Program-made: the position numbers and the translations under genes
From: a virus
Taxonomy: Duplodnaviria; Caudoviricetes
DNA length: 56,746 bases
Direction: 5' to 3' (one strand)
IMG/VR virus record: IMGVR_UViG_3300031520_000193
Location: 1-56,746 of that record
The notes under the pieces: generated by a model
Database searches by the model: none
Told to the model about the DNA's origin: nothing
What the model saw: only the letters and a program-made list of their open reading frames with translations
Shown: positions 2,444 through 36,086 of the stretch, piece after piece
Numbering within the stretch: the first letter of the stretch is position 1
Layout: each line of letters begins with the position of its first letter

Positions 2444-2448
2444 GTGGA

Positions 2449-5682: not shown

Positions 5683-5683
5683 G

Positions 5684-6057: not shown

Positions 6058-6774
6058 TCATGCGCTGCGCCCGATGCAACGCCAGTCGAACCCGTCGAGA
6101 TAAGGCTGTACGGACCCACCGGGCCGCTGATATTGAACCGAAAAGCTCGTAGTCGACTTGCTGTTTTGGATTATTTGCACCCAAGTATCGCTAGTCCCGC
6201 TCGGGCCGTTGATCGCGGGCGTGATCGCGATGTTGTAACTCCCGTCATAGAACGGGACCACCAAGCTAACGCCGACAACCGGCTCACCATAAGAGCTGGC
6301 GTTGACTGTACCCCATTGCTCGACGAAGCTGTTTCGATGACGGATGACGTTCTGCGACATATCGCCGGGCGCGATAGTGACAGCGATCCACCCGTTCGCA
6401 CCGCTGGCGTCGGGATTGGACGTGTTGCCGTCGACTGTAGACTGCCACAGTGTTCCGGGAGTCGTCGACGCCAACAGCGCGCTGAACGGGTAGCCGCCTA
6501 CTGCGCCCGCGAACGCCGCATCGAAAGTCGCCGCCCCGCCCGCCGCGCTCCATCGCGCCCACGCGGACAAGTCCGCCAGCACGCCGTTCATATCTTGCCC
6601 AGACGGGAACGAGCCGCCGCTAGCGATCGGCTGGAACGTTGCGGGCGGGAATCCCGTTGAGTAGCTCGCCGCACCGCCGCTCGTACCCGAGTCCGGCACG
6701 TTACGGATGAAGCCCGCGCCTGCCTGCGCAGCCCAGGTAACACTAATCCGGCGCGGCTGATTGCTGATTTGCAT
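6058..6774 (-). CDS. Tail fibre, module B (Bcep781-like N-terminus, gp53-like C-terminal domain)
   Basis: ASYSTGFPP..GQDMNGVL..FDAAFAGAVGGYP; EQWG...WRCIG end. Confidence 0.8.
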   Translation of the reverse strand: MQISNQPRRISVTWAAQAGAGFIRNVPDSGTSGGAASYSTGFPPATFQPIASGGSFPSGQDMNGVLADLSAWARWSAAGGAATFDAAFAGAVGGYPFSALLASTTPGTLWQSTVDGNTSNPDASGANGWIAVTIAPGDMSQNVIRHRNSFVEQWGTVNASSYGEPVVGVSLVVPFYDGSYNIAITPAINGPSGTSDTWVQIIQNSKSTTSFSVQYQRPGGSVQPYLDGFDWRCIGRSA

Positions 6775-7400
6775 TAGGAGTGGACCTCGCCAGATACCGA
6801 CACGCCGACAGGCTTGGGCAGCACACCCGCTTGCGCGACGATCGCGAGTTCGACAGCCGACAGCACCGCGCCGAACACCAGCGTCATGCTCATCCCGCCA
6901 TCGTCCCGGACGTAGCAGTTGCCCCGGCCCGGAAAGAGCGCGCGCATCGCCGCGTTGATCGCAGGGATAGACCCGTCGCAGATGTTGAGCGCCGCCTTGG
7001 CAAGGATTAGCCGCCGGAACGCCTCATCCGATAGCGCGAAGTTCCGCGTGATCGCTCCCGCGCCCCACCAGATGCCTTGACCAAACGGCTGTTCCGCGAA
7101 GCCGATGTACGGAACATCGGCGGGAATATGCAGCACACGGTTCACGCCAACGATGCGTCCCCACACATCCAAACCCCAGCCGCGCGCGGTTTCGACGTTC
7201 CACACCAGCGCGTAGAAAGCATCGACGTTGGCTTGCTGATCGAGTGCATCCGCCGTTCGCCTGATCAACTCGGTCAGCACTGGGCTATTGGCGTACTGAC
7301 TAAGCATCGTCTGGCGCACGTCGAACGACGGCAGCCCCATGACGCTATCCGGCCCCGCGTCTCCGATCGGTGCGCTGGCGGGTGCCAGTTTCTCGCTCAT
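6774..7400 (-). CDS. DUF2612 baseplate wedge protein, module B
   Basis: TMLSQYANSP, WNVETARGWGLDVWGRIVGV. Confidence 0.85.
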   Translation of the reverse strand: MSEKLAPASAPIGDAGPDSVMGLPSFDVRQTMLSQYANSPVLTELIRRTADALDQQANVDAFYALVWNVETARGWGLDVWGRIVGVNRVLHIPADVPYIGFAEQPFGQGIWWGAGAITRNFALSDEAFRRLILAKAALNICDGSIPAINAAMRALFPGRGNCYVRDDGGMSMTLVFGAVLSAVELAIVAQAGVLPKPVGVSVSGEVHS

Positions 7401-8608
7401 TGGAGCACCACGGCGATGTTACCCGGATCAAGCACCGGATACTGATTGATGTTGACCGCGACACTGTCGCCGGTCGGACTGGCGGACGTGCCGACGTGCA
7501 GCGACACAAGTTGCGCCCACGGCCCGAGCGCGACGATTCCCGCCACATAGCGGAGCGCATAGATGGTCGTGCCGATGCGCACCCGCTGGCCACCGTCCGC
7601 GCCGGTGAACGCCTTCACGATCGCCGCCTTGATCTGCGCGGCGGCATCGGACGGCACCGCACTTGACGATGCGATGGTGACGCCGAAATAAACCGGCAAC
7701 GCGGCCGGGCGCTGAAACGTGATGTTGTAGGCCGGGTATGGCGGCACATAGCCGCTCGACAGGTCCTCTACCGTGATCGTGATGTTGCCGTAGTAATCGC
7801 AGCCGGGATTTTTCTTTGACCATATCGCCCGCGCCACGTCCGCGTCGGTTCCGCCCTGCGCCGCGACGTACAGACTGTGCGCGGGTAGCGTGACGCCCCC
7901 GGTCGTAAGGGCGTTTGCGCCACTGTTCTCCGTCACATAGGCGTCGAGCACGCCGGAAACGCTCAGCACCGCCGCTCGGATCGAAGGGAGAATGCCGAGC
8001 GCGTTGATCGCCACCGATGCGACCCGGCGCGCCTCGAAATCCGCCCGGCTCTCCACGTCGCCCCCCGCAATACCTGCGGCCGGATTGATGATCGCATCCC
8101 AGCCCGGAATCGCGCGATAGATGCGGTTGAGCGCGCCGACCGGACAGGCGACGGGGCCAGTGTCGATTGCCGCGAAATTTACGGTCGCGGTGCCCGAGCT
8201 GGCAATCGTCGCCGTGCCCGTCGCCTGATAGATTGTGCCATCGGTCGCGATGGCGAGCGCGCCAGCCAGAATGACCGTGCCCGGCGCGCCGGTGCATATC
8301 GCCGCCACCACCGTCGAGTTCGGCGGGTTGCGGGTCATAAAGTAAATGCGGCCGATCGCGTCCTGCATCCGACCGCTCGCCGAAGCCGGGTCGACCTGAT
8401 TGGTGATCAGCAGGAACACCGCGTCGACCGCCGCGCGCACCGCCGTCAGAGACGTAGCGATCTGCCCTTGCGGCGTGGCCATGTCGGGATTTAGGTTGCC
8501 GCCGAACGCCGCTTGTAAGTCAGCGACCACACCCGCGAACACGTCAATCTCATCGGGCGCAGCGAAGCCGTTGTCCGTCAGTACGGGCGCGGGGACATTG
8601 GTCGCCAT
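7397..8608 (-). CDS. Baseplate J/gp47 protein, module B
   Basis: TPQGQIA, GRMQDAIGRIYF, ESRADFEARR. Confidence 0.9.
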   Translation of the reverse strand: MATNVPAPVLTDNGFAAPDEIDVFAGVVADLQAAFGGNLNPDMATPQGQIATSLTAVRAAVDAVFLLITNQVDPASASGRMQDAIGRIYFMTRNPPNSTVVAAICTGAPGTVILAGALAIATDGTIYQATGTATIASSGTATVNFAAIDTGPVACPVGALNRIYRAIPGWDAIINPAAGIAGGDVESRADFEARRVASVAINALGILPSIRAAVLSVSGVLDAYVTENSGANALTTGGVTLPAHSLYVAAQGGTDADVARAIWSKKNPGCDYYGNITITVEDLSSGYVPPYPAYNITFQRPAALPVYFGVTIASSSAVPSDAAAQIKAAIVKAFTGADGGQRVRIGTTIYALRYVAGIVALGPWAQLVSLHVGTSASPTGDSVAVNINQYPVLDPGNIAVVLQ

Positions 8609-8638
8609 CGCCCCACTCTAGCCGAGGACGAGCGTGAC

Positions 8639-8992
8639 CTAGAAAGCGGCGGTTTGGACCGTGCCGTTCGTCAGCCGGAGCTCTACCTGCCCCGCCAGCT
8701 TGCGCCCGCCGATCGGGGCAAGCGATACCGTCGCGCCAGCGACGCCGGGAACCCGTTTGGCCTCAGCCGCCAGCCGCTCACGTAGCACCGCTAAGGGCGT
8801 GGTGCCGGAAAACACCTGGTCGAAATACGGGACGCCACGCGAGGTGTCGTACCATGCTTCGCCGTAGAACACCCGGCATGCGGAAGCGGCGTCCTGCACG
8901 ATCGAATAGGGCTCCGTCGCGACCGCGATGTTGCCGAGCGCGTCGATGCATAGGTCGTTGGTGGCGCGGTCAAGTAGCAGGGTCGCGGGCAT
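8639..8992 (-). CDS. Baseplate gp25/W-like sheath initiator, module B
   Basis: LLLD..NDL.IDA.GNIAVA; FYGEAWYDTSRGVPYF; ATG at 8992. Confidence 0.8.
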   Translation of the reverse strand: MPATLLLDRATNDLCIDALGNIAVATEPYSIVQDAASACRVFYGEAWYDTSRGVPYFDQVFSGTTPLAVLRERLAAEAKRVPGVAGATVSLAPIGGRKLAGQVELRLTNGTVQTAAF

Positions 8993-9020
8993 GGGGTAGG
9001 GTGTAGCATGGCGCGCGCCG

Positions 9021-9056
9021 GGTTGGAGAGCGGCGGTTGCGCGCCGCCCTCCAACC
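9021..9056. terminator. GC-rich hairpin after the antirepressor gene
   Basis: GGTTGGAG-AGCGGCG...CGCCGC-CCTCCAACC stem; no clear U-tract on the minus strand. Confidence 0.45.
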
Positions 9057-9059
9057 GTT

Positions 9060-9638
9060 TCACGCCGCGTCAGATTCCGGCGGCCGGACCATGCCATAGT
9101 GGAACAGGTCCGGGTCGTTCTGCCCGTGATTGATCATTGCGGGCACGATCGGCAGATTCTGGTTGAACCATAGCTGCCGAGCGGCGAGCGGGCCGAACGT
9201 CTGACGCGCTTCCGCGACCAGTGAGCGACGCTCGTTCATCGACGGACTGGGGTCCGGTTCCTCGTCGCTGCCGAGTGCAGGCGGCCGCTTGCCAGTGAAG
9301 TGATCGTGGAGGACTTGATAGCACTCGCGCTGGTACAGAATGACGCGCTCGCGGACGGCTTCGTCCTTGATCCGGCCGCTGTCGATGCCGAAAAGCCAGC
9401 CGTTCACCATCTCCAGCTTGATGCAAAGCGTCTCCTGCGCACCCCCACGCCCGAAAGGTATCCGCATGACACGAATACCTTGGGAGAGAACCGGGTCGCG
9501 ATTGACCCGTTCGTACTGGCCGGGCCACATCAGCCCCATCGCCTCGACCATCGGTTTGAGCGCGAGAAACGTCCCGTCGTCTTCCCGAAAGCCGAACAGG
9601 TCGTCACCCCTGAAATTGACGGTCAAAATATCGCCCAT
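9060..9638 (-). CDS. ant: Antirepressor (P22 Ant N-terminal domain)
   Basis: LKPMVEAMGL.W..Q, NGWLFGID, YQRECYQVLHDHF. Confidence 0.85.
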   Translation of the reverse strand: MGDILTVNFRGDDLFGFREDDGTFLALKPMVEAMGLMWPGQYERVNRDPVLSQGIRVMRIPFGRGGAQETLCIKLEMVNGWLFGIDSGRIKDEAVRERVILYQRECYQVLHDHFTGKRPPALGSDEEPDPSPSMNERRSLVAEARQTFGPLAARQLWFNQNLPIVPAMINHGQNDPDLFHYGMVRPPESDAA

Positions 9639-9684
9639 GAAGCGACTCCACAAATAAGCCGACGCCGATTATGGCCGCGCCTGT

Positions 9685-9790
9685 CGACTGGTTGAGACTG
9701 GCGACGGCCGGGGCGGATTGGCCGTCTCAAAAGCGTCCGCCCCGGTCATCGACCTCCCGGCTGGGAGGCTCCGGGCGCGCGAAGCCCGAA
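9685..9790 (-). promoter_or_regulatory. Structured leader upstream of the antirepressor
   Basis: Three hairpins, including CCGGGGCGGA/TCCGCCCCGG, plus a TTGAGAC/GTCTCAA pairing. Confidence 0.5.
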
Positions 9791-9802
9791 CTGTGAATGG
9801 TT

Positions 9803-10132
9803 TTACGCCCTGCCCACCAGAACCGCCGACGTGATATAATCCGCTGCCCGCGCGATCTCGTCCCCGGACTTTTCCGACACGGCGGCAACCTCCCTGCTGA
9901 CGCTCCGCAGCCGTTCGATCGGGAGCGCTTTCAGCATGGCCATGACGATCAACAGCTCGGGCGTCCGCGTGATCTCGACTGGTTTTCTCGCGGGCTTGCG
10001 ATGTTCGTAAGCGACGGCCATCGAATACAGATTGTCGAGGTGGCACTCGCCGAACTTGCCGCCGAAGCGAAAGCCGCTCCCGCCTACGGATGGAAACTCG
10101 GCAATGTTGGTGATAAGGGCAGCTGTAGCCAT
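9803..10132 (-). CDS. Hypothetical protein co-transcribed with the antirepressor
   Basis: GGGAG RBS; lies between promoter and ant. Confidence 0.65.
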   Translation of the reverse strand: MATAALITNIAEFPSVGGSGFRFGGKFGECHLDNLYSMAVAYEHRKPARKPVEITRTPELLIVMAMLKALPIERLRSVSREVAAVSEKSGDEIARAADYITSAVLVGRA

Positions 10133-10203
10133 GATCGTCTCCCGGACGGTGGTGGTCAGAGGCGGCGCGGGGAGTGATGATCCCTTGCGCCGCTTCGTGT
10201 TTT

Positions 10204-10238
10204 CAGATAGCCGCTATCAGATATGCCGTCAATAGCCG
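10204..10238 (-). promoter_or_regulatory. Leftward promoter with palindromic operator
   Basis: Minus strand TTGACG, 17 nt, TATCTG; GATAGC-C-GCTATC palindrome at 10206-10218. Confidence 0.55.
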
Positions 10239-10411
10239 ATAACAGAAAAGCGCGGGGTCGCCCGCCAACAGGGATAGGCCCGCCGATCGGGTTGCGGCTC
10301 TATGCAAGTCAGCTTGCGGCCTTGGACACGTGGATTGCCGCGCAGCCCGAACCCCAACCGTCCCGCCCGGAAGCGATACGCCGCCTTGTGGACAAGGGGC
10401 TGGCGGGGTAG
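10223..10411 (+). CDS. Ribbon-helix-helix repressor (Mnt/Arc-like)
   Basis: RGRPPTG..IGLRL..QLAALDTW..SRPEAIRRLV. Confidence 0.85.
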   Translation: MPSIADNRKARGRPPTGIGPPIGLRLYASQLAALDTWIAAQPEPQPSRPEAIRRLVDKGLAG

Positions 10412-10427
10412 CCCTGCGCCGAATTAG

Positions 10428-11300
10428 GTGGGGCATGGCATGAGGCTGCTTTGTGAGTATTGTCGTGACGTGTTTCCGTCGACTGAAACAACCGTCGTCA
10501 CGGATCAAGTGTTATCGGGAGAGTCGACTTCTAGCCGCCTCTACAAGGGAACGCGCGGGGGGCTTGGTTTCGGTGGTACTTCGCGCGTCTCTTATCGATT
10601 TAAAGAAAGAGCGATTTGCCTTAATTGTGCGGAGAAGCGCGCAAGAAGATTCCGGAAAGCGGAAACTGTAAGGCGGGTAAAAAGGATTGCCGGTTCCATC
10701 ACGCTCATTGCGCTCGTGGGATATTGTGTGGCAAGATCAGAAAACATCCCGACCCATATACCCGAAACCGATGTAGAATGGCTTACAGTGCACGGTAACG
10801 ACCCGAAGGCATTGAGCGATAAGTTTGGAAATCAAGCCGACGCAGAATGCTCGTCTAAGGCTGACGACTATCTTAGAAGCATAGCTAAGCACGAGTTTAA
10901 GTGGAATGGCGACGCTCAAGGATTTCTAGCCTATAAGTTTGATAAGTTTAGTCTGCGATCGCTTGGAGACGGACTTCTTACAGAAATCTCGTCTAAAGCG
11001 GAGCTTTCTAATGGTTTTGGCGCATTTGATTCTATTCAGTTTTACTGCGTGTATAACGTAAAAACCGATAAGGTTGTTCGTTATTCGCTATCTGATCCGG
11101 GCCTTGATCTTATTCCGACGCCAGCCTTGCAAGACAAAAGCGACTTGCCTGCTACGAGTGTCGACAATGAGGCCAATGAGTCCAGCGGCGCGCCCACTCC
11201 AGACCCTACCGAATCTGTGCAGCCCCCCGCCCCGACAAGCCAACCAGACTCCCAAGACGACCTCCCACCACCCGAAGAGCCGCCCCCGCCGAACGACTAG
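10428..11300 (+). CDS. Moron: membrane-anchored protein with two CxxC pairs and a Pro-rich tail
   Basis: Opposite strand to the late genes; visibly AT-richer; CEYC/CLNC, TM helix near residue 90. Confidence 0.7.
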   Translation: MGHGMRLLCEYCRDVFPSTETTVVTDQVLSGESTSSRLYKGTRGGLGFGGTSRVSYRFKERAICLNCAEKRARRFRKAETVRRVKRIAGSITLIALVGYCVARSENIPTHIPETDVEWLTVHGNDPKALSDKFGNQADAECSSKADDYLRSIAKHEFKWNGDAQGFLAYKFDKFSLRSLGDGLLTEISSKAELSNGFGAFDSIQFYCVYNVKTDKVVRYSLSDPGLDLIPTPALQDKSDLPATSVDNEANESSGAPTPDPTESVQPPAPTSQPDSQDDLPPPEEPPPPND

Positions 11301-11920
11301 ACGATCCGAGTCACGATCCCGTTCGCCACCGTCACCACCTTTCCGTCCTGCGACGTGAACGTGCCGGTCGCGCCGTTCCCCGCCGCCAGCGTATGCGTCG
11401 TGCTCACCAGTCCCGCGTCGAGCAGCACCGTCCCGCTGGTCGTCATCTTGACCTGCGCGGTCGCCACCAGCTCCACGCCGCCGTTGGGCAGGAACTTGAC
11501 CCATTGCGTCGGCTCCGCGTTCAGCACGCCGCCAAGGTAGATGCCGTCCGCCCAATCGAACTTGCGAAACGAGCCGGGGTTGCTCGGGGCCTTGTTCGCC
11601 TTCGCCGAACTGATATCCGAATGCGCGAACACGGCTAGTCCGATATCGCCCACCACGGGGTCCATGATCACCGCATTGCCGCCTGCCTGGTAGCGCCAGA
11701 CGGGCAGGTTGTGAATCACCCCGTGCGGGACCGCGTTCTTCGCGCCGTCAAGCTGGTGGACCATCGGCTGCACGTCCACGCTGCCCGCGCGCACCGCCTT
11801 GACCTGAACCAGCGTTGCCGTCGCCATCTTGTTGACGATCGAGCGCATGGCGAAATCCAGGCGGTTCCACTCCGATGTCCCGCTCGCGAGCGTCCCGGTC
11901 CCGGCGTAGGCGTCAGACAA
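11297..11920 (-). CDS. Baseplate spike (gp138-like), module B
   Basis: VDVQPMV, MDPVVGDIGLAVF..DIS, RKFDWADGIYLGG. Confidence 0.88.
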   Translation of the reverse strand: MSDAYAGTGTLASGTSEWNRLDFAMRSIVNKMATATLVQVKAVRAGSVDVQPMVHQLDGAKNAVPHGVIHNLPVWRYQAGGNAVIMDPVVGDIGLAVFAHSDISSAKANKAPSNPGSFRKFDWADGIYLGGVLNAEPTQWVKFLPNGGVELVATAQVKMTTSGTVLLDAGLVSTTHTLAAGNGATGTFTSQDGKVVTVANGIVTRIV

Positions 11921-12794
11921 TGGGCACCTCGTGGCCTAGCACGCTGCCCTCGATTTGCGTGAACCACTGCCCGCCCGGCATTTGCGCGTCGAGATTGTGA
12001 TTGACCGACGCCAGCACCCAATATCCGCATGCCGGCTGTAGCGTCGAGCGCACCTCGACCTTGCGCCCGAACGTCAAGCCCGGATTGTAGAGCGTAGTCA
12101 GCCGGATGCCATTCTGAGTGAACTCGGGATAGCCCACCATCCCAGTATCGGCCGATATGAGAGGCACCAGCCCGTCCCGCGAGCCGCCCTTAGGCCATAT
12201 CGCCAGCGTGTCGTTCTCGACGATATACTCGAAATCGCATTGCCGGCACACCGCTTGGAGCTGGTCCATCGCCGTGCCGGGCAGGTAAGTGTTGCTAAGC
12301 TGCGCGGTGACGCCGTTGTTCTCCACCGACAGCGGCGGGGCCATTTGCGCGCAGACGTTACGAAGCACCGTCACCGCGTCGATCGTGCCGTTAAAGCTGA
12401 TCGCGGGAACTGGACGTACCTTGTCGAGCAGGCCGGTGTTGGCGGCGAGATGGAGGACGCCTTCGGGAGCGGAGCGCATATCCGCCCACGCCTCGCTTAT
12501 GATGCCGACGAAGCACACCGACATGCCGCTTTCCTTGTCCCCGGCCGAGACGGTGACGGTGTTCAGCCGAGCGCTGGTATAGGCGAGCTGGTTCAGCACA
12601 GTCAGCTTCGCCATCACGTCGAGTGGTAAGCCCCATACGCGCAGATCGAGCTTCGTCATGAAAACGCCGCCCGCTTTGTCGATGTTGGCGGAACAGCGCA
12701 GCCCGGCGAACTCCACCACGTTGGACCCGTCCTCGCCGAACGCGCCGGTGCCAAGCTCAAATCGCAACCCGATCATGCGCTCAACGAACGACAC
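11913..12794 (-). CDS. Baseplate hub protein, module B
   Basis: GLRCSANI, ISADTGMVGYP; gene order. Confidence 0.85.
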   Translation of the reverse strand: MSFVERMIGLRFELGTGAFGEDGSNVVEFAGLRCSANIDKAGGVFMTKLDLRVWGLPLDVMAKLTVLNQLAYTSARLNTVTVSAGDKESGMSVCFVGIISEAWADMRSAPEGVLHLAANTGLLDKVRPVPAISFNGTIDAVTVLRNVCAQMAPPLSVENNGVTAQLSNTYLPGTAMDQLQAVCRQCDFEYIVENDTLAIWPKGGSRDGLVPLISADTGMVGYPEFTQNGIRLTTLYNPGLTFGRKVEVRSTLQPACGYWVLASVNHNLDAQMPGGQWFTQIEGSVLGHEVPIV

Positions 12795-12797
12795 GAC

Positions 12798-13313
12798 CTA
12801 AGCGCCTAGCCATAGAAGGACGTAGCGAGTGCCCAGCCCGTCATAGGTCGGATCGCTCGCGCCTTGCGTATCAACGAACGCCAGCTCGCCCACGAAGCCG
12901 GTATATGCCGCCCGGACCAACGCCGTCCGGTCCAAGCATAGCACCCCAAGCGCGATCGACGCATCGTTGACGTAGAGGTCGAGATACGGCCCTGTCAGCC
13001 GCGTTCGAATCACGATGCGGCATGATTGACCGCCAAGCGCCACCGCCAGCATTTGCGACGGGACCGCGCTGAGCGGGACCACCATCGACGGCACCGCCCG
13101 CGCTACCGCCGCGACGATGCTCCCGGTTCGGGCGGACGGGGCGGGAAGCGGCGTCGGCGCGGGGGGTGGCGGTGGCGGGGGGCTTGGCGTGGGAGATGGC
13201 GATGGCGTCGGTGTAGGCGTCGGGCTGGGCGTCGGCGTTGGCGTGACAGGCGGATAAGAGCCGTCACCACCGTCGCCGGGGTTGATGTCGATTTGTCGGC
13301 TAGACGTGGTCAT
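12798..13313 (-). CDS. Baseplate plug-like protein with Pro/Thr-rich N-terminal extension, module B
   Basis: PLSAVPSQ...F.GELAFVDTQG..DP.YDGLGTRY core. Confidence 0.8.
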   Translation of the reverse strand: MTTSSRQIDINPGDGGDGSYPPVTPTPTPSPTPTPTPSPSPTPSPPPPPPPAPTPLPAPSARTGSIVAAVARAVPSMVVPLSAVPSQMLAVALGGQSCRIVIRTRLTGPYLDLYVNDASIALGVLCLDRTALVRAAYTGFVGELAFVDTQGASDPTYDGLGTRYVLLWLGA

Positions 13314-15783: not shown

Positions 15784-15997
15784 GCGGGTTCGCCAATCTC
15801 TGATTATACGCGTTGACCTGCGCTATTTCGAGCAGGTCGTACAAATCTTCTAGCCCGTAGATGCTGGCGAGCTCGTGGTACGTTGCGAGGCTCGTGCTGA
15901 CCGCCGCCCCGATCGTTTGCGGGATGTTGACGTAGCCGATGGACGCATCTTCGCCGCCTGCCCCAAGGTCGAGAGGGCGGCGGCTACGGAAAAACCC
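15773..15997 (-). CDS. Tail chaperone -1 frameshift extension (gpT-like), module B
   Basis: G GGT TTT slip into LATYHEL.SIYGLEDLYDLLEI frame. Confidence 0.75.
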   Translation of the reverse strand, partial: GFFRSRRPLDLGAGGEDASIGYVNIPQTIGAAVSTSLATYHELASIYGLEDLYDLLEIAQVNAYNQRLANPHAS

Positions 15998-16374
15998 GTG
16001 TGCAGTTCCACCACCTCCCCGCGCAGCTTGAGCAACGTGCCGACCTCTTCCGTGTCGTCGTCGATCAGCGCCCGCATCACTTCGGGCCGCGAGGGATTGG
16101 GGACGATCTGAACACACGCCAGCATCTCGGCTAGCAGCGGCTCCGCATCCGGCCATGCCATCGACGTAAGCGCCCGCGCGCCGAAACTGATGATTGCGGC
16201 CGCGCCCGCATCCATCGCTTCGTCCGGCACCTCCACACCCGCCTTGGACAGGCCCAGCAGCGCGCGCGTGGCCCATGCCTCGGCCGCTCTGGCGCTCATC
16301 TCCGTCAGGACAAACTGCTTGCCCTTGTCCCGCCCTTCCGCGTCGATCGTGACAACCTTGCTCTTTCGCGCCAT
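15850..16374 (-). CDS. Tail assembly chaperone (gpG-like), module B
   Basis: GRDKGKQFVLTEM; GGAGG RBS; lies between tube and TMP. Confidence 0.85.
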   Translation of the reverse strand: MARKSKVVTIDAEGRDKGKQFVLTEMSARAAEAWATRALLGLSKAGVEVPDEAMDAGAAAIISFGARALTSMAWPDAEPLLAEMLACVQIVPNPSRPEVMRALIDDDTEEVGTLLKLRGEVVELHTGFSVAAALSTLGQAAKMRPSATSTSRKRSGRRSARASQRTTSSPASTG

Positions 16375-16382
16375 GTCGCCTC

Positions 16383-16823
16383 CTAATTCGCGGCGGGCTG
16401 GACCCGCTGCCACAGCACGGTGAACTTGCGCGGTTGAAGCACTTTCGCCACCGCCGGAAGCTTGACGATGTTCGTCAGAAACCCGCGCGTCATGCTGTAT
16501 TTGCGGTTCGTCGCGGGAAGCACGATCGACCCGAACAGCACGTATTTCTCGCGCGCGGTTTCCTCGGCGCTGATCAGCGTATCGAAAAAGTCGTTGCTCG
16601 CCGAATCCGCCTGGAGCGTGATATTCTGGGGCACCGGAGCGAACGCCCAGCCCGCCGACAACCGGCCGTCGACCCCCGTCAGGGTTTCCGTGGGCTGGTA
16701 AGCGTCCATGTCGGTAATGTTGTCGGCGGCGAACCCCTCGATGCGCTGCGCCGTGTCGAACAACCCCGTTGCGCCGAGCAGGATGATAGCGTTCGCCGCC
16801 GTGATCGTGCGGTTGTTCGCCAT
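16383..16823 (-). CDS. Tail tube protein, module B
   Basis: TITAANA, GVDGRLSAG, ITLQADS. Confidence 0.88.
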   Translation of the reverse strand: MANNRTITAANAIILLGATGLFDTAQRIEGFAADNITDMDAYQPTETLTGVDGRLSAGWAFAPVPQNITLQADSASNDFFDTLISAEETAREKYVLFGSIVLPATNRKYSMTRGFLTNIVKLPAVAKVLQPRKFTVLWQRVQPAAN

Positions 16824-16826
16824 GAT

Positions 16827-18314
16827 CTACTCCACCGCAATGCTGTTGAGGGTGATCTGCTGAATCGACTGGCCATCGGTGTACCAGAAATACACTGGCG
16901 GGGAGCCGCGCGCCGCGCGCACCGCCGGCGAGGCCGGGAGCGCCAGCGCATACCAGCCGCGCTGCGAAAGCGTGGTGGCGATGTCCCGCCCCGCCGCCGC
17001 GTTGACCTGCGCGATCTGTGTCGCCGATAGCGTTACTCCGGCCCGGATCGCGCCATAGGACACCGCCGCCGCGATCTGCGGGAGCATCGCCGTCTCGACC
17101 ATGGCGTAGCCGTCCGCATTGTACGGAAGCTGTCCCGTCGCCAGGAGCAGCTGAATGAGCGCGAGTTGAAACCCGGCGTTCATCCAGACTTCATTGATGT
17201 ACGTGTCGATCCACAGAAACGGACCGGCAATCTGCCCGGGGTAGAAGAACGCGAACCCTTGATTGGCGGTCGCATAAGCCGCGTAGAAGTTGTACCCGCT
17301 CGCCTGAAGGTTAGTCGCCGTGGTCGCGTTCGTGACACCCGCCGGGACCGTAGACCCGGACCGAAAGGCGAGATTGACCCGCCCGTTCGTCCGGCTGAAG
17401 TTGATCGACGCCAGCGCCCCCATGAAGAAGGCCGCGACGCGCGCGGGGCTGTTCGGATCCCAGATCGGCACCGTGCCGGACAACGCGCCCTGGTTAACCT
17501 GATAGCCCAGCGACGCCGTGTCGTTGGCTTGCGTCGGGACAGGGTCGCTATCTCCCATCGCATATAGGTAGCGGTTGCCCTGCGCGGCGTTCCACGTCGC
17601 GAACGCGAGGCGATCGGCCGCGCTCGGCATGAACGTCGTGGTAAAGCTGACGAAGTTCTGTGTTGCCGCGACCACGCCCGCCATCGCCGCCGCCGGGGTA
17701 GCCTGCGCCGCGCCCTGCGAAACAACCGCGCCGGTCGCGGCCGTGAGCGCGAGCGACGCCGCCAGCGGACCGGTAGCGAAGTCCATCGCCGAGGCCACGC
17801 CGGTAGCGGTGTTGGTGAACACGAACGCTCCCGACACGCTGTCATAGGCGACGGTGAACGGGGGACCGGTAAACCCCGCCTGAATCAGCGTCGCCGCATT
17901 GCTGTAGCTCGTCGCGCTCGCAAGATTGATCGTGGCGCTGGTCGTGGTCGCTCCGCCGCTCTTGATCGTGAGCACGCCCGAAAGCGCCTGAAGCCCCGCC
18001 AACGACAGGCCGAGATTCCCGCCGCGCAGATAAGCCGCGACCGCCGACGTGGGATACTGAACAAACAGGAGGGCGGCGGGCTTGATCGTCGAACCGTCAT
18101 AGCCCGCGAAGTAGGTGGCCGCGAGCGTCGCTTCGTTCGACGTGGGGCCGAAGAACGCCGCAACCGCTGGCGACGACGCGAACCGCTGTACCGCGCCAAT
18201 CGGAACGCGACCGGAGTCGGTCAGGAACAGCCCGACAAGGTCAAGCCCCGATCCGCCGACGCCCACCACGTTCGGAATGACGTTGACGATTGCCGACGCC
18301 GGAATGCTTGGCAT
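16827..18314 (-). CDS. Tail sheath protein DUF3383, module B
   Basis: IPASAIVNVIP, F.WIDTYINEVW, WYTDGQSIQQI. Confidence 0.92.
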   Translation of the reverse strand: MPSIPASAIVNVIPNVVGVGGSGLDLVGLFLTDSGRVPIGAVQRFASSPAVAAFFGPTSNEATLAATYFAGYDGSTIKPAALLFVQYPTSAVAAYLRGGNLGLSLAGLQALSGVLTIKSGGATTTSATINLASATSYSNAATLIQAGFTGPPFTVAYDSVSGAFVFTNTATGVASAMDFATGPLAASLALTAATGAVVSQGAAQATPAAAMAGVVAATQNFVSFTTTFMPSAADRLAFATWNAAQGNRYLYAMGDSDPVPTQANDTASLGYQVNQGALSGTVPIWDPNSPARVAAFFMGALASINFSRTNGRVNLAFRSGSTVPAGVTNATTATNLQASGYNFYAAYATANQGFAFFYPGQIAGPFLWIDTYINEVWMNAGFQLALIQLLLATGQLPYNADGYAMVETAMLPQIAAAVSYGAIRAGVTLSATQIAQVNAAAGRDIATTLSQRGWYALALPASPAVRAARGSPPVYFWYTDGQSIQQITLNSIAVE

Positions 18315-18315
18315 A

Positions 18316-18819
18316 TCAGCCGACCTCCACCATGTTCACGGCCACGTTAGCCGCGAAGTCGACTGGGACGGCAACCGGCGGATTGGCCTGCACCGCCGCC
18401 GTCATCGTCCATCGGTCCTCGTACTGATATTCGCCGTTCACCAGCGGCATCTGACGACCATCGTCACAGTAAAGCGGCTGCACTTGGTAAGGCGCGAGGA
18501 AGTCGCACCCCCACGCATCCCGGAACAGGGTGGCGATCACTTGGACGTTGTCGGTTGAGTTCGGGCCGTACACATCGAGCTGGAAATGCACCGCATTTGA
18601 CCGTGCGACGACGCTCATGCCGGTCGCCATACTGTAACTATGCGTCGTGGTGGATAGCTGCTCGCGACGAGCAGGCGTGATGATAACGTGGTCAAGGGAT
18701 GTCGGCTCGGGCACGCGGTTGACCTGCCCAAGCACGACCTCAACGCCATCAGGAAGCACAGCAAGCAGGAACGCCCGCAACGCGGTGATGATCGCGTCGT
18801 CGGTCAGGACAGGCGTCAT
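18316..18819 (-). CDS. Tail terminator/neck protein, module B
   Basis: GQVNRVPEP, QLDVYGP, PLYCDD..QMPL.NGE.QYE.RW. Confidence 0.82.
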   Translation of the reverse strand: MTPVLTDDAIITALRAFLLAVLPDGVEVVLGQVNRVPEPTSLDHVIITPARREQLSTTTHSYSMATGMSVVARSNAVHFQLDVYGPNSTDNVQVIATLFRDAWGCDFLAPYQVQPLYCDDGRQMPLVNGEYQYEDRWTMTAAVQANPPVAVPVDFAANVAVNMVEVG

Positions 18820-19229
18820 TGCGGATGCCCAAGCATTTGCTCCGCCAAAGCGACCTTGCACCATCCCGCCGTTGACCAGTCCTCCAGCACGGCGATGACA
18901 AGCCAATCATAGACGATGCCCGCGAAAGGACCGGTCGGGTCGGCGAATGATACGATATCACCGCCCGAGCGCGTAATGCGGTCGACCCCGGTCAGCTGCG
19001 TGTCGGCGTAGATTGCGCGGGTGGCATTGGACAGGTTCATGCTGTCCAAATGCTCCACCTCTTTCTTGGCCAATGCCTGCGCCTGAATCGTGACTGGCAC
19101 GGGCGGGACATAGGCCGGGACCTGCTTTCCGTTCGCCGCCGTCGTGTACCCGGTGCAAACGCGCACCGTTGCGGCGATGTTCGGGTTGATGCCCCGCGTC
19201 GCGCGGTTGGCGATGGCGCGGACGTTCAC
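18816..19229 (-). CDS. Head closure/head-tail joining protein, module B
   Basis: G.Q.P.Y, GGDIV.F, WLVIAVLEDW..WCKV. Confidence 0.8.
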   Translation of the reverse strand: MNVRAIANRATRGINPNIAATVRVCTGYTTAANGKQVPAYVPPVPVTIQAQALAKKEVEHLDSMNLSNATRAIYADTQLTGVDRITRSGGDIVSFADPTGPFAGIVYDWLVIAVLEDWSTAGWCKVALAEQMLGHPQ

Positions 19230-19681
19230 CGTGTCACCTCTTTGTCGACCGACGCCAGCATGTGACCAGTGTCGACCAGCGGCTTGTCCGAACCTTTCCG
19301 CGCGATCGTGTCCGGTGACAGCTCGGGAGCGTTCGTGTCGACGATAGACTGACGAAGCTGCCCAGCGATACCCTCGCCCATAAGCGCCAGCGCCTTCCCA
19401 CCGTCCCAGTCCGCCTGTTCCAGCACCTTCGCCAGCTTACCGCCCCACTCAGGCGATTTTTCGTTCACCATCTTGGAGAAGAACGGCCGCGCCGGAATAC
19501 CCGCGTTGGGCGCGCCGAAGTTCTGAATAGCCGCCACCATCGCGACGGGCGTTCCATCGGGGTAGGTCGCGCCTTCAAGGAAACCGACCCGAAGCGTACC
19601 CGGATTGCTCACCTTGTCGGCGAGTTTCTTCAGGTACGCCTCCAGCTTCTCCCCGCCCTTGACCGGGCTAACGACCGCCAT
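19226..19681 (-). CDS. Neck protein (HK97 gp10-like), module B
   Basis: VGFLEGATYPDG, IPARPFF, KGSDKPLVDTG. Confidence 0.85.
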   Translation of the reverse strand: MAVVSPVKGGEKLEAYLKKLADKVSNPGTLRVGFLEGATYPDGTPVAMVAAIQNFGAPNAGIPARPFFSKMVNEKSPEWGGKLAKVLEQADWDGGKALALMGEGIAGQLRQSIVDTNAPELSPDTIARKGSDKPLVDTGHMLASVDKEVTR

Positions 19682-20120
19682 AGCCGACCCTGCCGGGGAA
19701 GCCGTAGAACGGGTCGAACGAGGGCTGAGCAACCGGACGATACTGCATCCGCATGTAGGGCCGCACCGCCGCCCAGAAGGCATAGCCGTAGGCCGTCTGC
19801 GCGTACCATGCCGCCGTGCCCGGCTCCACGCCCGCATCAACCGAAACAGACACCGACCCTTCACCCGCCGACGTGACGCGCCCGACTAGGCCAGTCGGCT
19901 TGCCATCGGCCTCCAATGCCCCGCCAAGCGTCGCGAGATGCGCCACCAGCATGTTGAACAGCATCAACCGCCGGTCAACGTCCTGCACGATCGAGCCGTC
20001 GCTGTTGTCGAGATATAGTCCGGCCTGTTGGAACAGAAGCGCGGCGCGCGCGGGCGTCACCCCCGCCAGCTCGGGATAGAGCGTATTCCACGCGGCGTAG
20101 TCGAACACCGCGACGGCCAT
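19668..20120 (-). CDS. DUF4054 head-tail adaptor, module B
   Basis: FDY.AW..LYPE, LVGRVTSA.EGSVSV, WY.QT.YG..FW. Confidence 0.9.
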   Translation of the reverse strand: MAVAVFDYAAWNTLYPELAGVTPARAALLFQQAGLYLDNSDGSIVQDVDRRLMLFNMLVAHLATLGGALEADGKPTGLVGRVTSAGEGSVSVSVDAGVEPGTAAWYAQTAYGYAFWAAVRPYMRMQYRPVAQPSFDPFYGFPGRVGYGGR

Positions 20121-20122
20121 GC

Positions 20123-20560
20123 TCAGCTGTTCTTGCCGGAGTTCACCAAGCCGGGAGTAGCCGCCGCTGCGCGCTTGATCTCGGCATCGCCGTCAAGGCC
20201 GTCAAACCCGGTAGCAACATCGGTCGTGGTCGCAGACGTATCCTTGCGGGCGTCGCCTTCCGACTTGTACGGCTTGATCACGCCATTGAGAAGCGGCTGA
20301 AACGGCTCCTCCAACAGGCCCTTGGCCTTCTCGCCGTCCTTGTAGAGCGCGCGGTTGGACCAGTCCTCGAATACCGCCGCGTCCTGATCGGATAGCGTGG
20401 TCAGCCCGAACCCCGCCGACAGCCCGGTGCCATCGGCGAGCGCGCCGTTCTTGTCGGGGGAGAGGGCGTCAAAGTTGACGTTCGACCCGTTGATGTTGAT
20501 CGTTCGGCCCTGGTGAGTGATGGTGAGGCCGTGCGGGAGCTTGCAAGCGATGATCGGCAT
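20123..20560 (-). CDS. Conserved Bcep781-like protein after the capsid gene, module B
   Basis: ACKLPHGL start; gene order. Confidence 0.75.
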   Translation of the reverse strand: MPIIACKLPHGLTITHQGRTININGSNVNFDALSPDKNGALADGTGLSAGFGLTTLSDQDAAVFEDWSNRALYKDGEKAKGLLEEPFQPLLNGVIKPYKSEGDARKDTSATTTDVATGFDGLDGDAEIKRAAAATPGLVNSGKNS

Positions 20561-20563
20561 GGC

Positions 20564-21589: not shown

Positions 21590-21595
21590 TGTTGA

Positions 21596-22114: not shown

Positions 22115-22115
22115 G

Positions 22116-23402
22116 TTAAATCGTCCTCAGTTTGGCGGCGTTGGGGTAGCGCGACGCGAAGTCGCTGCGATGCGTGGTGACCGTGGCGGCGTCCTGCGCG
22201 ATCACGGCGCTGGCCTTGGGCAGCATTCCCACCATCGCCTTAAGCGACGCCTGATCGGCAGTCGCGGGATAGCTGACTTTCGCCGCGTCGAGCGCGAAGC
22301 GGTAGATCGCGTCAGCCGAGTCCATGCCGACCACCGCGCCGACATACGGCTGTACGTCGCGCTTAGCCTGGTCGATCGCCGCCACGCTCGCCGCGCCACG
22401 CTTTTCCGCGTCCGTAATCATGCCCCTGACGGTCGCTGCGTCCATGGCCGGCTTTTTCTTGTCGTCGGGTTCGGCGTCCTTAGCGGTTTTATCCGCTGCG
22501 GCCTGCTCGCGCTTTTTGCGCGCGGCGTATTCTTCATCGGACTCGTCTTCACGCTGATCGGCGGGTTTATCCTCATCCTCGGCGATGTCGTCCTCGTCTT
22601 CGGGAGCGGCCTGAACCGCTTCGATCACCTTGACGAGTTCTTCCACGTCGAGGTCGGCATCGGCGGCGAGCTTGCCCTTGGCCGCGACCGCGACCTTGGT
22701 GGCGAGAGCCTTGGGCGCGCCGTCCATCGCCAGCGACTTGGTGGACACGGTGTTGAGCGCGGACGAAAGGTCGAGCCTCGCATCCTTGGCGAGCTTCGGA
22801 CGGACCATGGCGGCGATGGCCCCCGATACCATCAGCGCCGTGCGCGACTTGAGCTTCATGTGTTCATCTCCGACGACAACATCCGGTCCCGCACGGCCCT
22901 CGATAACGAGCGCCACGTGATTTCCAACGATATCGCGCATCACTCCATCGTAGCGTGAACCGGCGGTTTCGCCCGGCGTCATGTCGGCGCGGTAGCGATA
23001 CGCGCTTGATAGTTCCTTCTGACGATCAGTGCCGATGCCATCGATCTGAGCGCGCTTCCACACCGACAGACTGTTCTGCATGTACGGAGCGACGAACACG
23101 GCATGGCTTCCCGTCGATCCGCAAATCAGTTCTTCGGGAAAGTCATCCGACGATACCGGGACGTGCTCGCTCAGAATCGGGAGGTTGTTGAACGTGGACG
23201 CTGCTTTGGCGAGTTCTTCCGGGTCGCGGAGAAGCTGGTAGATGCGATCGGGATTGAGCCCGAGCATTTCCCAGTCGGGTATCTCCCGACCGCTATACGG
23301 GCACACGTTCGCCTTGGAGATGTTGGACACCTCTACGTGCAGGAAACCGTTAGCGTCGAGCTGGCGGACCGTGGCGCGGTCCATGGCGAAGAGTAGGGTC
23401 AC
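22116..23402 (-). CDS. DUF2213 prohead protease/scaffold B
   Basis: SNISKANVCPY.GREIP, ELSSAYRY.ADMTPG, NHVALV.EGRAG; GTG 23402 with GGAG 8 nt upstream. Confidence 0.92.
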   Translation of the reverse strand: MTLLFAMDRATVRQLDANGFLHVEVSNISKANVCPYSGREIPDWEMLGLNPDRIYQLLRDPEELAKAASTFNNLPILSEHVPVSSDDFPEELICGSTGSHAVFVAPYMQNSLSVWKRAQIDGIGTDRQKELSSAYRYRADMTPGETAGSRYDGVMRDIVGNHVALVIEGRAGPDVVVGDEHMKLKSRTALMVSGAIAAMVRPKLAKDARLDLSSALNTVSTKSLAMDGAPKALATKVAVAAKGKLAADADLDVEELVKVIEAVQAAPEDEDDIAEDEDKPADQREDESDEEYAARKKREQAAADKTAKDAEPDDKKKPAMDAATVRGMITDAEKRGAASVAAIDQAKRDVQPYVGAVVGMDSADAIYRFALDAAKVSYPATADQASLKAMVGMLPKASAVIAQDAATVTTHRSDFASRYPNAAKLRTI

Positions 23403-29430: not shown

Positions 29431-29439
29431 AGACGGTTC

Positions 29440-29823: not shown

Positions 29824-29835
29824 TGCGAAGGCTCC

Positions 29836-36075: not shown

Positions 36076-36086
36076 CGTCTGTCCCC

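Follow-up and report, generated by a model that had tools for sequence, protein, structure and literature searches.

The window analysed here, the whole 56,746-bp record, is an excised provirus from a rock-dwelling bacterium, recovered from a metagenome; a second rock metagenome study was used for comparison. A single late-gene run, on one strand and nearly free of gaps, holds a complete myovirus module (A) plus an unrelated head-and-tail module (B). The backbone of the element is an "A-type" temperate myovirus, with a repressor-like HTH gene, a primase-helicase, TerS, TerL, a PF04860 portal, head genes, a contractile tail, a fibre and a beta-helix tailspike; the lysis genes lie at the far end. 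The late genes of module A are as follows.

46629..47084, minus strand: small terminase subunit (phrog_309 terminase small subunit, E 3.9e-18)
45218..46672, minus strand: large terminase, the window's only one (PF17289 Terminase_6C, E 1.2e-21)
43865..45193, minus strand: portal of PF04860 type, the window's only portal (PF04860, E 7.3e-33)
41590-43002, minus strand: 470-aa head protein in the scaffold/protease position (role from position only)
40528-41556, minus strand: major capsid protein (PF17236 SU10_MCP, E 2.7e-5)
27542..38085, minus strand: contractile-tail block (Pfam PF05954, PF04717/PF18946, PF04865, PF05069)
25955..27514, minus strand: tail fibre (PF21882 Gp53-like_C, E 1.3e-10)
23399..25945, minus strand: 848-aa beta-helix tailspike, the last A gene (N-terminus match and structural matches)

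Judged from position, the tail block would encode a 515-aa sheath, a tube, a 661-aa tape measure and a 253-aa wedge; it also holds a Phage_tail_S protein, a GPD hub, a gpV spike with an Apex motif and Baseplate_J, and is syntenic with three A-type records (G006-G008, 35-68% identity). Portal A shares 44-68% identity with the portals of 55 IMG/VR loci, and identity to relatives reaches 77% for the capsid protein and 64% for the 470-aa head protein. The N-terminal 214-220 aa of the fibre are 45-50% identical to the fibres of G006-G008, and the N-terminal 52-55 aa of the tailspike match the N-termini of its positional counterparts in these records (E 7e-8 for G008, 2e-4 for G006 and 0.013 for G007). 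Beyond this the tailspike gives a weak PF12708 match and beta-helix tailspike-like Atlas matches, with structural alignments that extend to residue 846; its C-terminal half has no sequence relative among 5.8 billion proteins. The 848-aa tailspike is A's own and appears whole. Mosaicism is usual in the A-type group, whose members differ in TerL, in their lysis genes and in the body of the spike. In the layout of G006, the fibre is followed by a large fibre/spike protein, the endolysin and then an integrase. Given this order, module B occupies the A-type fibre-to-lysis transition.

Module B, at 6058-23402 on the minus strand, is a complete E217/Pa193-like head-and-tail block running from DUF2213 to a fibre.

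22116..23402, minus strand: full-length DUF2213 head-maturation protease/scaffold (PF09979, E 7.7e-46)
21596-22114, minus strand: cement/decoration protein (Pfam; PF23982 and PF22758 together with the capsid gene)
20564-21589, minus strand: major capsid protein (E217 8frs_B, E 1e-11; Pa193 gp26, E 3e-11)
20123-20560, minus strand: small ORF among the neck genes, 145-aa protein (phrog_2085)
19668-20120, minus strand: DUF4054, of the neck gene set
18316-19864, minus strand: neck1/tail-completion protein, collar-like protein and neck terminator (Pfam/PHROGs)
16827-18314, minus strand: DUF3383 sheath (PF11863, E 1.1e-126)
16383-16823, minus strand: tube (PF22764, in the sheath-tube block 15773..18314)
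within 15773..18314, minus strand: tail-assembly chaperone pair (-1 slippery site GGGTTTT at 15997)
14128-15783, minus strand: protein in the tape-measure position (Phage_lysozyme2, PF18013)
11297-14131, minus strand: Dit-like protein, Pam3 gp18-like plug, E217 gp41-like hub and spike (Pfam)
8639-9097, minus strand: baseplate wedge (phrog_120)
7397-8608, minus strand: Baseplate_J (PF04865)
6774-7400, minus strand: DUF2612 (PF11041, E 2.4e-54)
6058-6774, minus strand: fibre (PF21882)

Several of these assignments are supported by more than one match. In DUF2213, phrog_2229 "head maturation protease" covers residues 5-426 of 428, and the protein matches the Pa193 gp24 scaffolding protein (9b40_G, E 2.4e-10). 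The neck gene set (18316..20560) gives PF13262 (E 2.7e-14), PF23961 (E 1e-21), a weak PF22755 match and phrog_222 (E 8.7e-43); the sheath matches those of Pa193 (gp32) and E217 (gp31) at E 8e-27; phrog_3976 matches the frameshifted C-terminal part of the chaperone pair; and the block from tape measure to spike (11297..15783) also yields PF21821, PF22479, PF22759 and PF18352. The first-pass annotation had reported that everything from a full-length DUF2213 onward is present and that the tape measure of B carries a lysozyme domain; Pfam and PHROGs bear out the former gene by gene, and the latter corresponds to Phage_lysozyme2 at residues 359-469 (E 7.5e-17). All 19 structural genes of B are open reading frames and all 19 have homologues in B-type relatives (best query coverage 0.62-1.00), while the genes from wedge to fibre (6058..9097) are syntenic in G002-G005. 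Invariant columns are kept at 24 of 24 positions in DUF2213 (38 homologues), 18 of 19 in the capsid protein and 46 of 51 in the sheath. Module B is hence complete and intact, as seen in its open frames, homologues, slippery site and invariant residues.

What B lacks lies upstream of DUF2213. A profile search of the 56,746-bp record, a kind of check which the first-pass annotation had proposed, with DUF1073 and Mu gpF, for the rest of the contig and the host, gave no match to the PF06381 portal and none to PF04233 (Mu-F); as a control, PF06381 was found in three of three B-type records and in neither of two A-type records. When six portals, four Mu-F proteins and three TerL proteins from relatives were used as tblastn queries against the record, the sole significant match was that of one TerL (L003) to the window's single TerL, at 31% identity; the best portal and Mu-F values were E 0.025 and E 0.39. 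HMMs were also built from these proteins and searched against 1086 six-frame pieces, where the best E values were 0.19, 0.28 and 1.2. The earlier statement that no DUF1073-type portal, minor head gene or second terminase occurs in the window thus holds, according to four methods, for the 56,746-bp record, and the evidence supports a module B that is without terS, terL, portal and Mu-F only and is otherwise whole within the record. The record also lacks an integrase, and its end falls within a tandem repeat; since it is an excised provirus of this kind, "anywhere in the window" is not the same as anywhere in the host. In the relatives these genes have a regular place: by Pfam, a PF06381 portal lies just upstream of DUF2213 in five of five loci, with Mu-F there too in three. 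Among 30 Acetobacteraceae loci, 23 have a portal or Mu-F at most 1.5 kb upstream of DUF2213, in two others a portal lies further upstream, at 1.6-1.7 kb, and five carry no assignment.

At the junction of the two modules, that place is taken by the last gene of A.

23399..23402, minus strand: GTGA at the A/B junction, where the TGA stop of the tailspike overlaps the GTG start of DUF2213

This GTG is preceded, 8 nt upstream, by a GGAG motif. A DUF2213 start at 23411 was rejected, as homologue N-termini align from the GTG at 23402. Novacetimonas-type relatives show the same kind of overlap, with the TGA of the upstream gene overlapping the ATG of DUF2213; wherever this upstream gene could be assigned, it is the portal, and in L121, L123, L124, L126 and L127 the frame of the portal directly adjoins the start of DUF2213. 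A foreign tailspike gene therefore stands where the PF06381 portal gene stands in several relatives.

It is very improbable that the assembler simply joined two different prophages of the community at this point. The metagenomic source would allow it; both assemblies that show the junction were built from the same reads, and none of the second-study pieces listed bridges 23,400. However, the join is a stop/start overlap of unrelated genes and not a repeat, and no second copy of the junction flanks occurs in the window. A 40,388-nt contig of a second assembler bridges the junction with 0 differences, on reads of the probable source sample only, and its depth is even with that of the neighbouring contig (14.5 vs 13.9). 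Each flank also has identical pieces in the second study (21863-22179, 23470-23779 and 24403-25039). Codon usage is also alike on both sides: the RSCU values of A and B correlate at 0.98, compared with 0.965 for a within-module split-half, which places both modules in the same host background.

Along the array from TerS to the lysis genes, just two gaps of at least 40 nt lie inside or border B: a 2.2-kb insertion in the baseplate cluster and one at the chaperone pair, the latter a product of how the frameshifted pair was delimited. No gap of at least 40 nt separates module B from the genes downstream.

9098..11296, no strand: 2.2-kb insertion in the B baseplate cluster, with no counterpart in the B-type relatives G002-G005
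9060-9653, minus strand: Ant-type antirepressor (PF10547, E 1.3e-26; phrog_524)
10428-11300, plus strand: 290-aa ORF of the insertion (ORF call)
2117..6034, minus strand: downstream genes common to both modules (Pfam, PHROGs, Atlas)
4423-5682, minus strand: 419-aa glycoside-hydrolase-like protein (Atlas match)
3224-3661, minus strand: endolysin, the element's only one (PF01832 Glucosaminidase, E 3e-20)

The downstream set also includes a 116-aa protein (phrog_22789), small ORFs and three further small ORFs after the endolysin; for the genes at 2117-6034, no homologues were found in the A-type or B-type relatives compared.

How common is this arrangement? B genes were found in none of the 55 A-type loci and the B sheath in none of five whole A-type records, and the B-type loci examined hold no A genes. 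For none of ten tested A and B proteins did about 15 billion proteins include a relative at 90% identity. The proteins of B are 23-57% identical to any relative found, the nearest solved relatives of the module, which the first-pass annotation called Bcep781-like, being Pa193 and E217. The arrangement is a singleton among the records examined; hence selection for it cannot be demonstrated.

The simplest reading, absent from the first-pass annotation, which did not consider assembly error either, is that the element is a young recombinant in which B is passenger DNA lying between the fibre genes of A and the sole lysis cassette. Most likely the two recombining partners were phages or prophages of the same host, and the event would have attached to the A-type backbone, at a gene boundary, all the morphogenesis genes that follow the portal in an unrelated E217/Pa193-like myovirus. 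Without a portal, Mu-F and terminase, B alone cannot make DNA-filled heads or a tail-attachment vertex. The assembly of myovirus tails, on the other hand, proceeds without heads, so that free B tails would be expected alongside A virions on induction. We infer that B would be transcribed by read-through from A's late operon; induction would then yield A virions, free tailocin-like contractile B tails and portal-less B shells, and the single endolysin cassette would release all particle kinds. We give even odds to this whole reading, a young recombinant prophage whose module B, if read through, would produce unattached contractile tails and shells without a portal in addition to A virions. The second kit can probably make only free tails and empty shells. 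Of the three options raised in the first-pass annotation, free tails with DNA-free heads would thus be the default outcome if B is transcribed, with use as a weapon or decoy being putative.

A different history, which we consider unlikely, is that a deletion between tandem prophages took B's early and packaging genes and A's distal end, leaving B as a remnant that is not expressed productively and will decay. The singleton arrangement and a record without an integrase fit such an origin; the insertion, with its opposite-strand ORF, could interrupt transcription; and an SD-like motif stands before 8 of the 18 starts in B, compared with 14 of the 20 in A, a weak point given that longest-ORF starts were used. 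Nevertheless, the genes of B are intact, with frameshift site and invariant residues kept. The stop/start overlap would require both deletion end points to fall at gene ends, and the junction leaves no room for a terminator or other gap. Since the only endolysin lies downstream of B, A needs transcription through or past B, barring an internal promoter.

The undecayed head genes of B fit the youth of the recombinant, and equally a head function that our preferred reading denies. Under such a function, portal A would nucleate both A and B heads, and the B heads would be filled with prophage DNA by A's terminase and then joined to B necks and tails, so that one genome would give rise to two forms of virion. 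The absence of decay in the neck genes as well as the head genes is in its favour. So is the relation of the B capsid protein to those of E217 and Pa193: the capsid lattice given for Pa193 in the available part of PMC11456595 is T = 9, and the element is at least as large as expected of A-type genomes, for which CheckV estimates about 51-56 kb; a larger head would help. Furthermore, in two loci (L141 and L144) short DUF2213 proteins follow a 479-490-aa ORF matching neither PF06381 nor PF04860, from which the protease domain may travel with other portal types. Against this, PF04860 and PF06381 portals are different Pfam families with no detectable sequence similarity, and literature phrase searches gave no precedent for keeping two full virion sets. 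In P22, portal incorporation is said, in work by Motwani et al. in 2017, to be scaffold-specific. We find such sharing highly unlikely.

Only slightly less remote is an interplay with a B-type phage, in which a co-resident or infecting E217-like phage would lend portal, Mu-F and terminase in trans, or B proteins would poison its assembly. Partners could be at hand: of 401 genomes from the likely host family, 43 carry DUF2213-type prophages, and contigs 85-99% alike to parts of B are found in both rock metagenome studies, but most of these partial matches are short and may be GC-rich repeats. The evidence of absence covers the record only, and B contains an Ant-type antirepressor, a class of protein that can switch on other prophages. 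Yet B has no regulator for sensing another phage, it would depend on A's late operon for expression, and the closest relative found is only 57% identical.

Known systems share parts of this design. The DUF2213-led modules of Pa193/E217 (Pbunavirus) and of Acetobacteraceae prophages have, like B, a protease/scaffold (Pa193 gp24), a decoration protein and an HK97-fold capsid, then neck, DUF3383 sheath, tube, tape measure, E217 gp41-type hub and baseplate, and B is syntenic with the prophage relatives G002-G005. Unlike them, B has a foreign tailspike gene upstream in place of a PF06381 portal, Mu-F and terminase, and an antirepressor-carrying insertion in its baseplate cluster. The cf-PICI capsid-forming satellites encode their own capsid, packaging, integrase and replication genes and borrow tails; B resembles them as a partial virion gene set relying on another element for missing parts, but the division of parts is reversed, and B has no integrase or replication genes. 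The R2/F2 pyocin locus of P. aeruginosa holds two divergent tail-building sets, co-regulated, with one lysis cassette. That locus is named in the accessible portion of PMC2647930, which also describes chimeric prophage 03 of P. fluorescens Pf-5, where modules of different lineages are joined at gene boundaries as in our element. A precedent for two tail kits is found, as far as the available text of PMC12090994 goes, in the Pseudomonas chlororaphis two-tailocin locus, with divergent contractile-tail sets of separate origins, one locus and a single lysis cassette; divergence of the two sets would limit assembly interference. Tailocins, according to the same text, lack head, packaging and replication genes, whereas in our element A is a whole phage and B keeps its head genes bar the portal; the predicted B tails also differ in having no known killing activity. 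SPbeta-type hybrids likewise combine modules of different phage lineages in one prophage (available part of bioRxiv 10.1101/2020.05.06.055103). In known hybrids, modules are swapped, for instance a siphovirus head on a myovirus tail, whereas our element adds a second head-and-tail set alongside a complete first one.

A last observation concerns the 2.2-kb insertion, which the first-pass annotation did not mention: it also holds a 125-aa ORF, and its GC3 is 0.65 vs 0.76-0.78 elsewhere.

The window carries one terminase and one portal, both belonging to module A, together with two complete and unrelated head, neck, tail and fibre gene sets and one endolysin cassette downstream of both. Its G+C content is 59-66% along its length, and almost every long reading frame is on the minus strand. 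The genes of module A are arranged as follows:

Upstream of TerS (-): HTH repressor-like gene, MT-A70 methylase, DUF1376 and primase-helicase (Pfam/PHROGs)
46629-47084 (-): TerS
45218-46672 (-): TerL (Terminase_6C)
43865-45193 (-): portal, PF04860 type
Between portal and capsid protein (-): conserved 470-aa head protein
40528-41556 (-): capsid protein of A
Contractile-tail block (-): GPD hub, gpV spike and Baseplate_J of A
25955-27514 (-): fibre of A
23399-25945 (-): 848-aa protein (tailspike) of A

Portal-to-tail synteny with module A is common to 55 IMG/VR loci at 44-77% protein identity, and three whole A-type relatives (G006-G008) are syntenic with it as far as the fibre. The 848-aa protein is also part of A, since its residues 1 to 52-55 match the N-termini of the genes in the same position in G008 (E 7e-8), G006 (2e-4) and G007 (0.013). 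The remainder is predicted to form a β-helix tailspike-like body, with structural alignments extending to residue 846 of 848 (an Atlas lead); its C-terminal half matches only itself among 5.8 billion proteins. In G006 the fibres are followed by a 738-aa protein, two small genes, a GH108 endolysin, small ORFs, a nuclease and, at the record end, an integrase. At the other end of the module, the window TerL is just 24-44% identical to the TerL of A-type relatives, their portals being 44-68% identical, and no homologue of it was found in G006; judged by sequence comparison, the terminase/portal boundary is a mosaic joint in A's phage group.

Module B, the second head-and-tail set, spans 6058-23402 and begins with a DUF2213 protease/scaffold (22116-23402, -), a decoration protein and an HK97-fold capsid protein, in this order (PF09979, PF23982/PF22758). 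The N-terminal 160 residues of DUF2213 match Pa193 gp24 (9b40_G), deposited as a scaffolding protein, and the capsid protein is related to those of E217 (8frs_B) and Pa193 (9b40_A). An identical gene order is described for Pa193, with gp24 as putative scaffolding, gp25 as decorating and gp26 as capsid protein (T = 9), in PMC11456595. The genes that follow include two ordered blocks:

After the capsid protein (-): neck of B, comprising DUF4054, Neck1, a collar-like protein and a neck terminator, in order
Baseplate of B (-): Dit-like protein, plug, gp41-type hub, spike, wedge, Baseplate_J and DUF2612, then the fibre

The contractile-tail set is complete, including the fibre: sheath, tube, chaperone, tape measure, hub, spike, wedge, Baseplate_J and DUF2612 are all present. 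The DUF3383 sheath has relatives in the sheaths of Pa193 and E217, and next comes an E217 gp32-type tube. The tail-assembly chaperone pair (15850-16374 and 15773-16000) has an intact canonical -1 slippery heptamer, GGGTTTT at 15997, and only the -1 shift gives access to its conserved phrog_3976 part. The first-pass annotation had claimed that everything from a full-length DUF2213 onward is present and that the tape measure carries a lysozyme domain. Both claims hold: all 19 structural genes have homologues in the same order in B-type relatives (best query coverage 0.62-1.00), the phrog_2229 match ('head maturation protease') spans the whole of DUF2213, and the tape-measure-position protein contains a Phage_lysozyme2 domain. 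Between A and B, a weak Baseplate_J match is the only sequence similarity.

As for the state of these genes, DUF2213 retains 24/24 columns invariant among 38 homologues, the capsid protein 18/19 (25 homologues) and the sheath 46/51 (9 homologues); in a leave-one-out control these values fall within the homologues' own range, with a low rank for the capsid protein and the sheath. The sequences of B thus appear free of decay, which would be compatible with youth or function alike. The same preservation speaks against the reading of B as a silent remnant, which we consider unlikely.

What module B lacks is the means to package DNA. The absence from the window of a DUF1073-type portal, a minor head gene and a second terminase, as reported in the first-pass annotation, was borne out by Pfam, tblastn and HMM searches. 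For the rest of the contig and the host, it had proposed an HMM search for DUF1073 and Mu gpF; run on the window with Pfam, such a search gave 0 matches to the PF06381 portal and 0 to the Mu-F protein (PF04233); the PF06381 blank carries weight because the same search is positive in 3/3 B-type and 0/2 A-type records. With six portals, four Mu-F proteins and three large terminases of relatives as tblastn queries, only the window's single TerL was matched (31% identity to the TerL of relative locus L003), and profile HMMs built from the relatives' portals, Mu-F proteins and TerL found nothing better than E 0.19 among 1086 six-frame pieces.

In relatives, the portal is adjacent to DUF2213 in 5/5 loci tested by Pfam, with Mu-F also present in three of those five. 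DUF2213 was found in 43 of 401 sampled Acetobacteraceae genomes, and 23 of 30 loci from this sample have a portal or Mu-F gene within 1.5 kb upstream. The remaining seven comprise two with the portal 1.6-1.7 kb upstream, two (L138 in G105 and L139 in G048) with a PF06381 portal 12-13 kb away, two (L141 in G305 and L144 in G345) with a short DUF2213 of 277-281 aa, and one that runs to a contig end; hence the rule that a portal stands beside DUF2213 has exceptions. L138 and L139 lie in Acetobacteraceae genomes of 1.9-2.0 Mb, their distant portal sits inside a 1087-1239-aa open frame, and in G048 a second DUF2213 copy occurs 19 kb from the first; both loci may represent additional prophages of the DUF2213-led type that are rearranged or in tandem. 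In L141 and L144, the ORF before the short DUF2213 (479-490 aa) matches neither PF06381 nor PF04860, and a PDB sequence search with that of L144 gave nothing useful; the protease domain of DUF2213 may also accompany a different family of portal.

With one portal in the window, module B might borrow it. Such portal sharing strikes us as very improbable, and we give just as little credence to its fuller form, a two-form phage in which both capsid types share the one PF04860 portal and terminase. If true, the genome would exit both as A head/A tail and as a larger E217-like B head/B tail; the two forms would differ in receptors, and the B head would give space for an enlarged genome. PDB sequence searches with portal A and DUF4054 gave nothing useful, and a complex prediction that paired B DUF4054 (12-row alignment) with two copies of portal A (residues 21-442, 35-row alignment) gave no answer, at the lowest possible score, and is evidence neither for nor against. 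The portal might instead come from a co-infecting B-type phage, an interplay that we regard as quite improbable.

The A|B junction is without a gap. The tailspike gene ends in GCG GCG TGA, and the G before TGA gives the GTG start of DUF2213, which has a GGAG 8 nt upstream; DUF2213 homologues align from this GTG (window VTLLFAMDRATVR vs MTGILAHDRIGSVR). In Novacetimonas-type relatives, the TGA of the upstream gene and the DUF2213 ATG overlap with the same geometry, and that gene, where identified, is the portal, its frame abutting the DUF2213 start. The foreign tailspike therefore occupies the portal's exact place, with the same coupling geometry. On one reading, the crossover would have fallen within the portal gene's last codons, the TGA being B's own; the letters shared at the junction are few and not significant.

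Could the junction be an error of assembly that joined two prophages? Among the listed pieces from the runs of a second study none bridges 23,400, and both assemblies that show the junction were built from the same probable source reads. Against this, a 40,388-nt contig from a second assembler covers 13459-25499 with 0 differences at a depth of 14.5 (13.9 for the next contig), pieces from the second-study runs match each side of the junction exactly (21863-22179, 23470-23779 and 24403-25039), the join at 23,400 is not within a repeat, and codon usage is the same on either side of it, so that we consider an error highly improbable. The codon-usage correlation is 0.98 between A and B and 0.965 between halves of one module; by this measure, the phages behind A and B would have had hosts alike in codon usage, which has no bearing on timing. 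We also considered and rejected an insertion of A into B as a prophage: the A-type integrase and lysis genes stand beyond the fibres, and there is no integrase or lysis gene between tailspike and DUF2213; the record has no transposase.

At the far border, 23 nt separate the B fibre from a 116-aa gene; next come a 419-aa glycoside-hydrolase-like gene, small ORFs and the endolysin (PF01832), the sole one of the window. Seven gaps of at least 40 nt occur from TerS to the lysis genes; the two in B or at its borders are a 2.2-kb insertion and a delimitation artefact of the frameshifted chaperone pair. No direct repeats flank B beyond chance-level 25-nt matches, and promoter and terminator scans of 5000-24500 did not rise above shuffles (5 vs 4.2 ± 2.2; 23 vs 15.1 ± 3.8). 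In two B-type prophages, no endolysin was found by Pfam in 10 ORFs downstream of the fibres.

The 2.2-kb insertion (9098-11296) lies between the spike and wedge genes of B and is missing in B-type relatives: the spike-wedge distance is at most 200 nt in G002, G004 and G005, and in G003 the spike is followed by Baseplate_J. Its GC3 is 0.65, vs 0.76-0.78 elsewhere, and it holds the following:

9060-9653: Ant-type antirepressor
Within the insertion: 125-aa ORF
Within the insertion, opposite strand: 290-aa ORF, no Pfam, PHROG or PADLOC match

PADLOC, run on 10 unannotated ORFs including the 290-aa one, gave nothing but one weak match (E 0.005). The match to a 5.8-kb contig from another study is confined to the antirepressor gene, which therefore occurs in other contexts too.

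Among the records examined, the combination of modules appears in this one alone. At 90% identity among ~15 billion proteins, 10/10 tested A and B proteins were singletons, and the window's proteins are on record from one 167,197-bp contig only. B genes were found in 0/55 A-type loci and 0/5 A-type records, and no A genes in the B-type loci examined. The best match to DUF2213 among viral, genome and metagenome contigs is 54% identical, and none of the matching contigs has A genes; the tailspike had no match among viral contigs, and the relatives of A's Baseplate_J sit on short contigs and share less than 50% identity with it. No match came from a megablast of 6058-25945 against 50,697 GenBank phage records, and no relatives were close enough for a substitution-rate test.

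Regulators of the element are found only in A's early region. We propose that transcription of A's late operon would continue into B. Assembly of myovirus tails is independent of heads in T4, P2 and Mu, and B tails would thus be expected to assemble, while the B capsid protein and protease/scaffold would yield portal-less shells, neither fillable nor joinable to tails. The lysate would then hold three kinds of particle: A virions, empty shells, and free contractile tails of B fitted with B's own fibre. Of the first-pass interpretation, the premise of missing parts stands and the option of DNA-free heads with free tails corresponds to this putative lysate; the notion that the arrangement is an adaptation found no support. 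The element is a chimeric prophage, a singleton from a metagenome, probably one of rock, and possibly an early step towards a tailocin.

Among described structural modules, B most resembles that of E217/Pa193, sharing the head trio, DUF3383 sheath, gp32-type tube, gp41-type hub, Baseplate_J and DUF2612, but the PF06381 portal found there upstream of DUF2213 (with or without Mu-F) is missing. The nearest known systems include two divergent tailocins released by one lysis cassette, as presented in PMC12090994, and the R2/F2 pyocins named in PMC2647930. Module B is like an R-type tailocin in its complete contractile-tail set with fibre. However, tailocins are by definition without head genes, and B retains its protease/scaffold, decoration, capsid and neck genes; it would therefore be at most a precursor. 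Phage satellites (PICI, cf-PICI, P4-like) have their own integrase, replication and helper-exploitation genes, whereas B has none of the three, containing structural genes and the Ant-bearing insertion only (no PF00589 or PF00665 in the record). An exact-phrase literature search, which by its nature cannot exclude a case in print, returned no prophage with two structural modules.

If B is expressed, the element would represent an undescribed stage in a possible tailocin origin, before useless head genes go: a working phage whose late control and lysis genes also govern an additional, head-disabled tail set. The element would, besides, offer a natural test of how specifically portal and scaffold recognise each other across unrelated head systems. 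If B is only a young accident, whole 15-kb morphogenesis blocks would be addable at a gene boundary, not merely swappable. Such addition bears on genome-size limits, prophage finders and completeness estimates, the record being scored as one 100% complete provirus.

That rating, by CheckV, applies to the 56,746-bp IMG/VR record. A and its flanks hold the temperate-myovirus features TerS, TerL, portal, capsid, tail, fibres, lysis, replication and repressor. An integrase and attachment sites, likewise expected of a complete temperate myovirus, were not found in the record: Pfam detected neither a tyrosine integrase (PF00589) nor an rve transposase (PF00665), and searches for tRNAs and for flanking direct repeats came back empty. 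The right end (56535-56746) falls within a 27-nt tandem repeat of 7-8 copies inside an open frame with DUF7666, which means that the record may be cut short there; it probably is, and part of the early region may be missing. The A-type relatives, which are proviruses, measure 54-56 kb, and A-type fragments of 39-40 kb are rated 73-79% complete, which gives an expected A-type genome of ~51-56 kb. Without module B, the window leaves 39.4 kb of A, of which early genes make up no more than 9.7 kb up to the cut end; either module B has taken space that early genes would fill, or the element clearly exceeds A-type size.

Two further genes deserve mention. A DUF5131 gene (47148-48047, +; E 9.5e-81) lies between the replication genes and TerS, on the opposite strand. 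The 419-aa protein (4423-5682) has no match in Pfam or PHROGs and a TIM-barrel glycoside-hydrolase look, with a very high Atlas feature score and a structural TM-score of 0.68 to GH53-like clusters; on this modelled fold, it could be a polysaccharide depolymerase.
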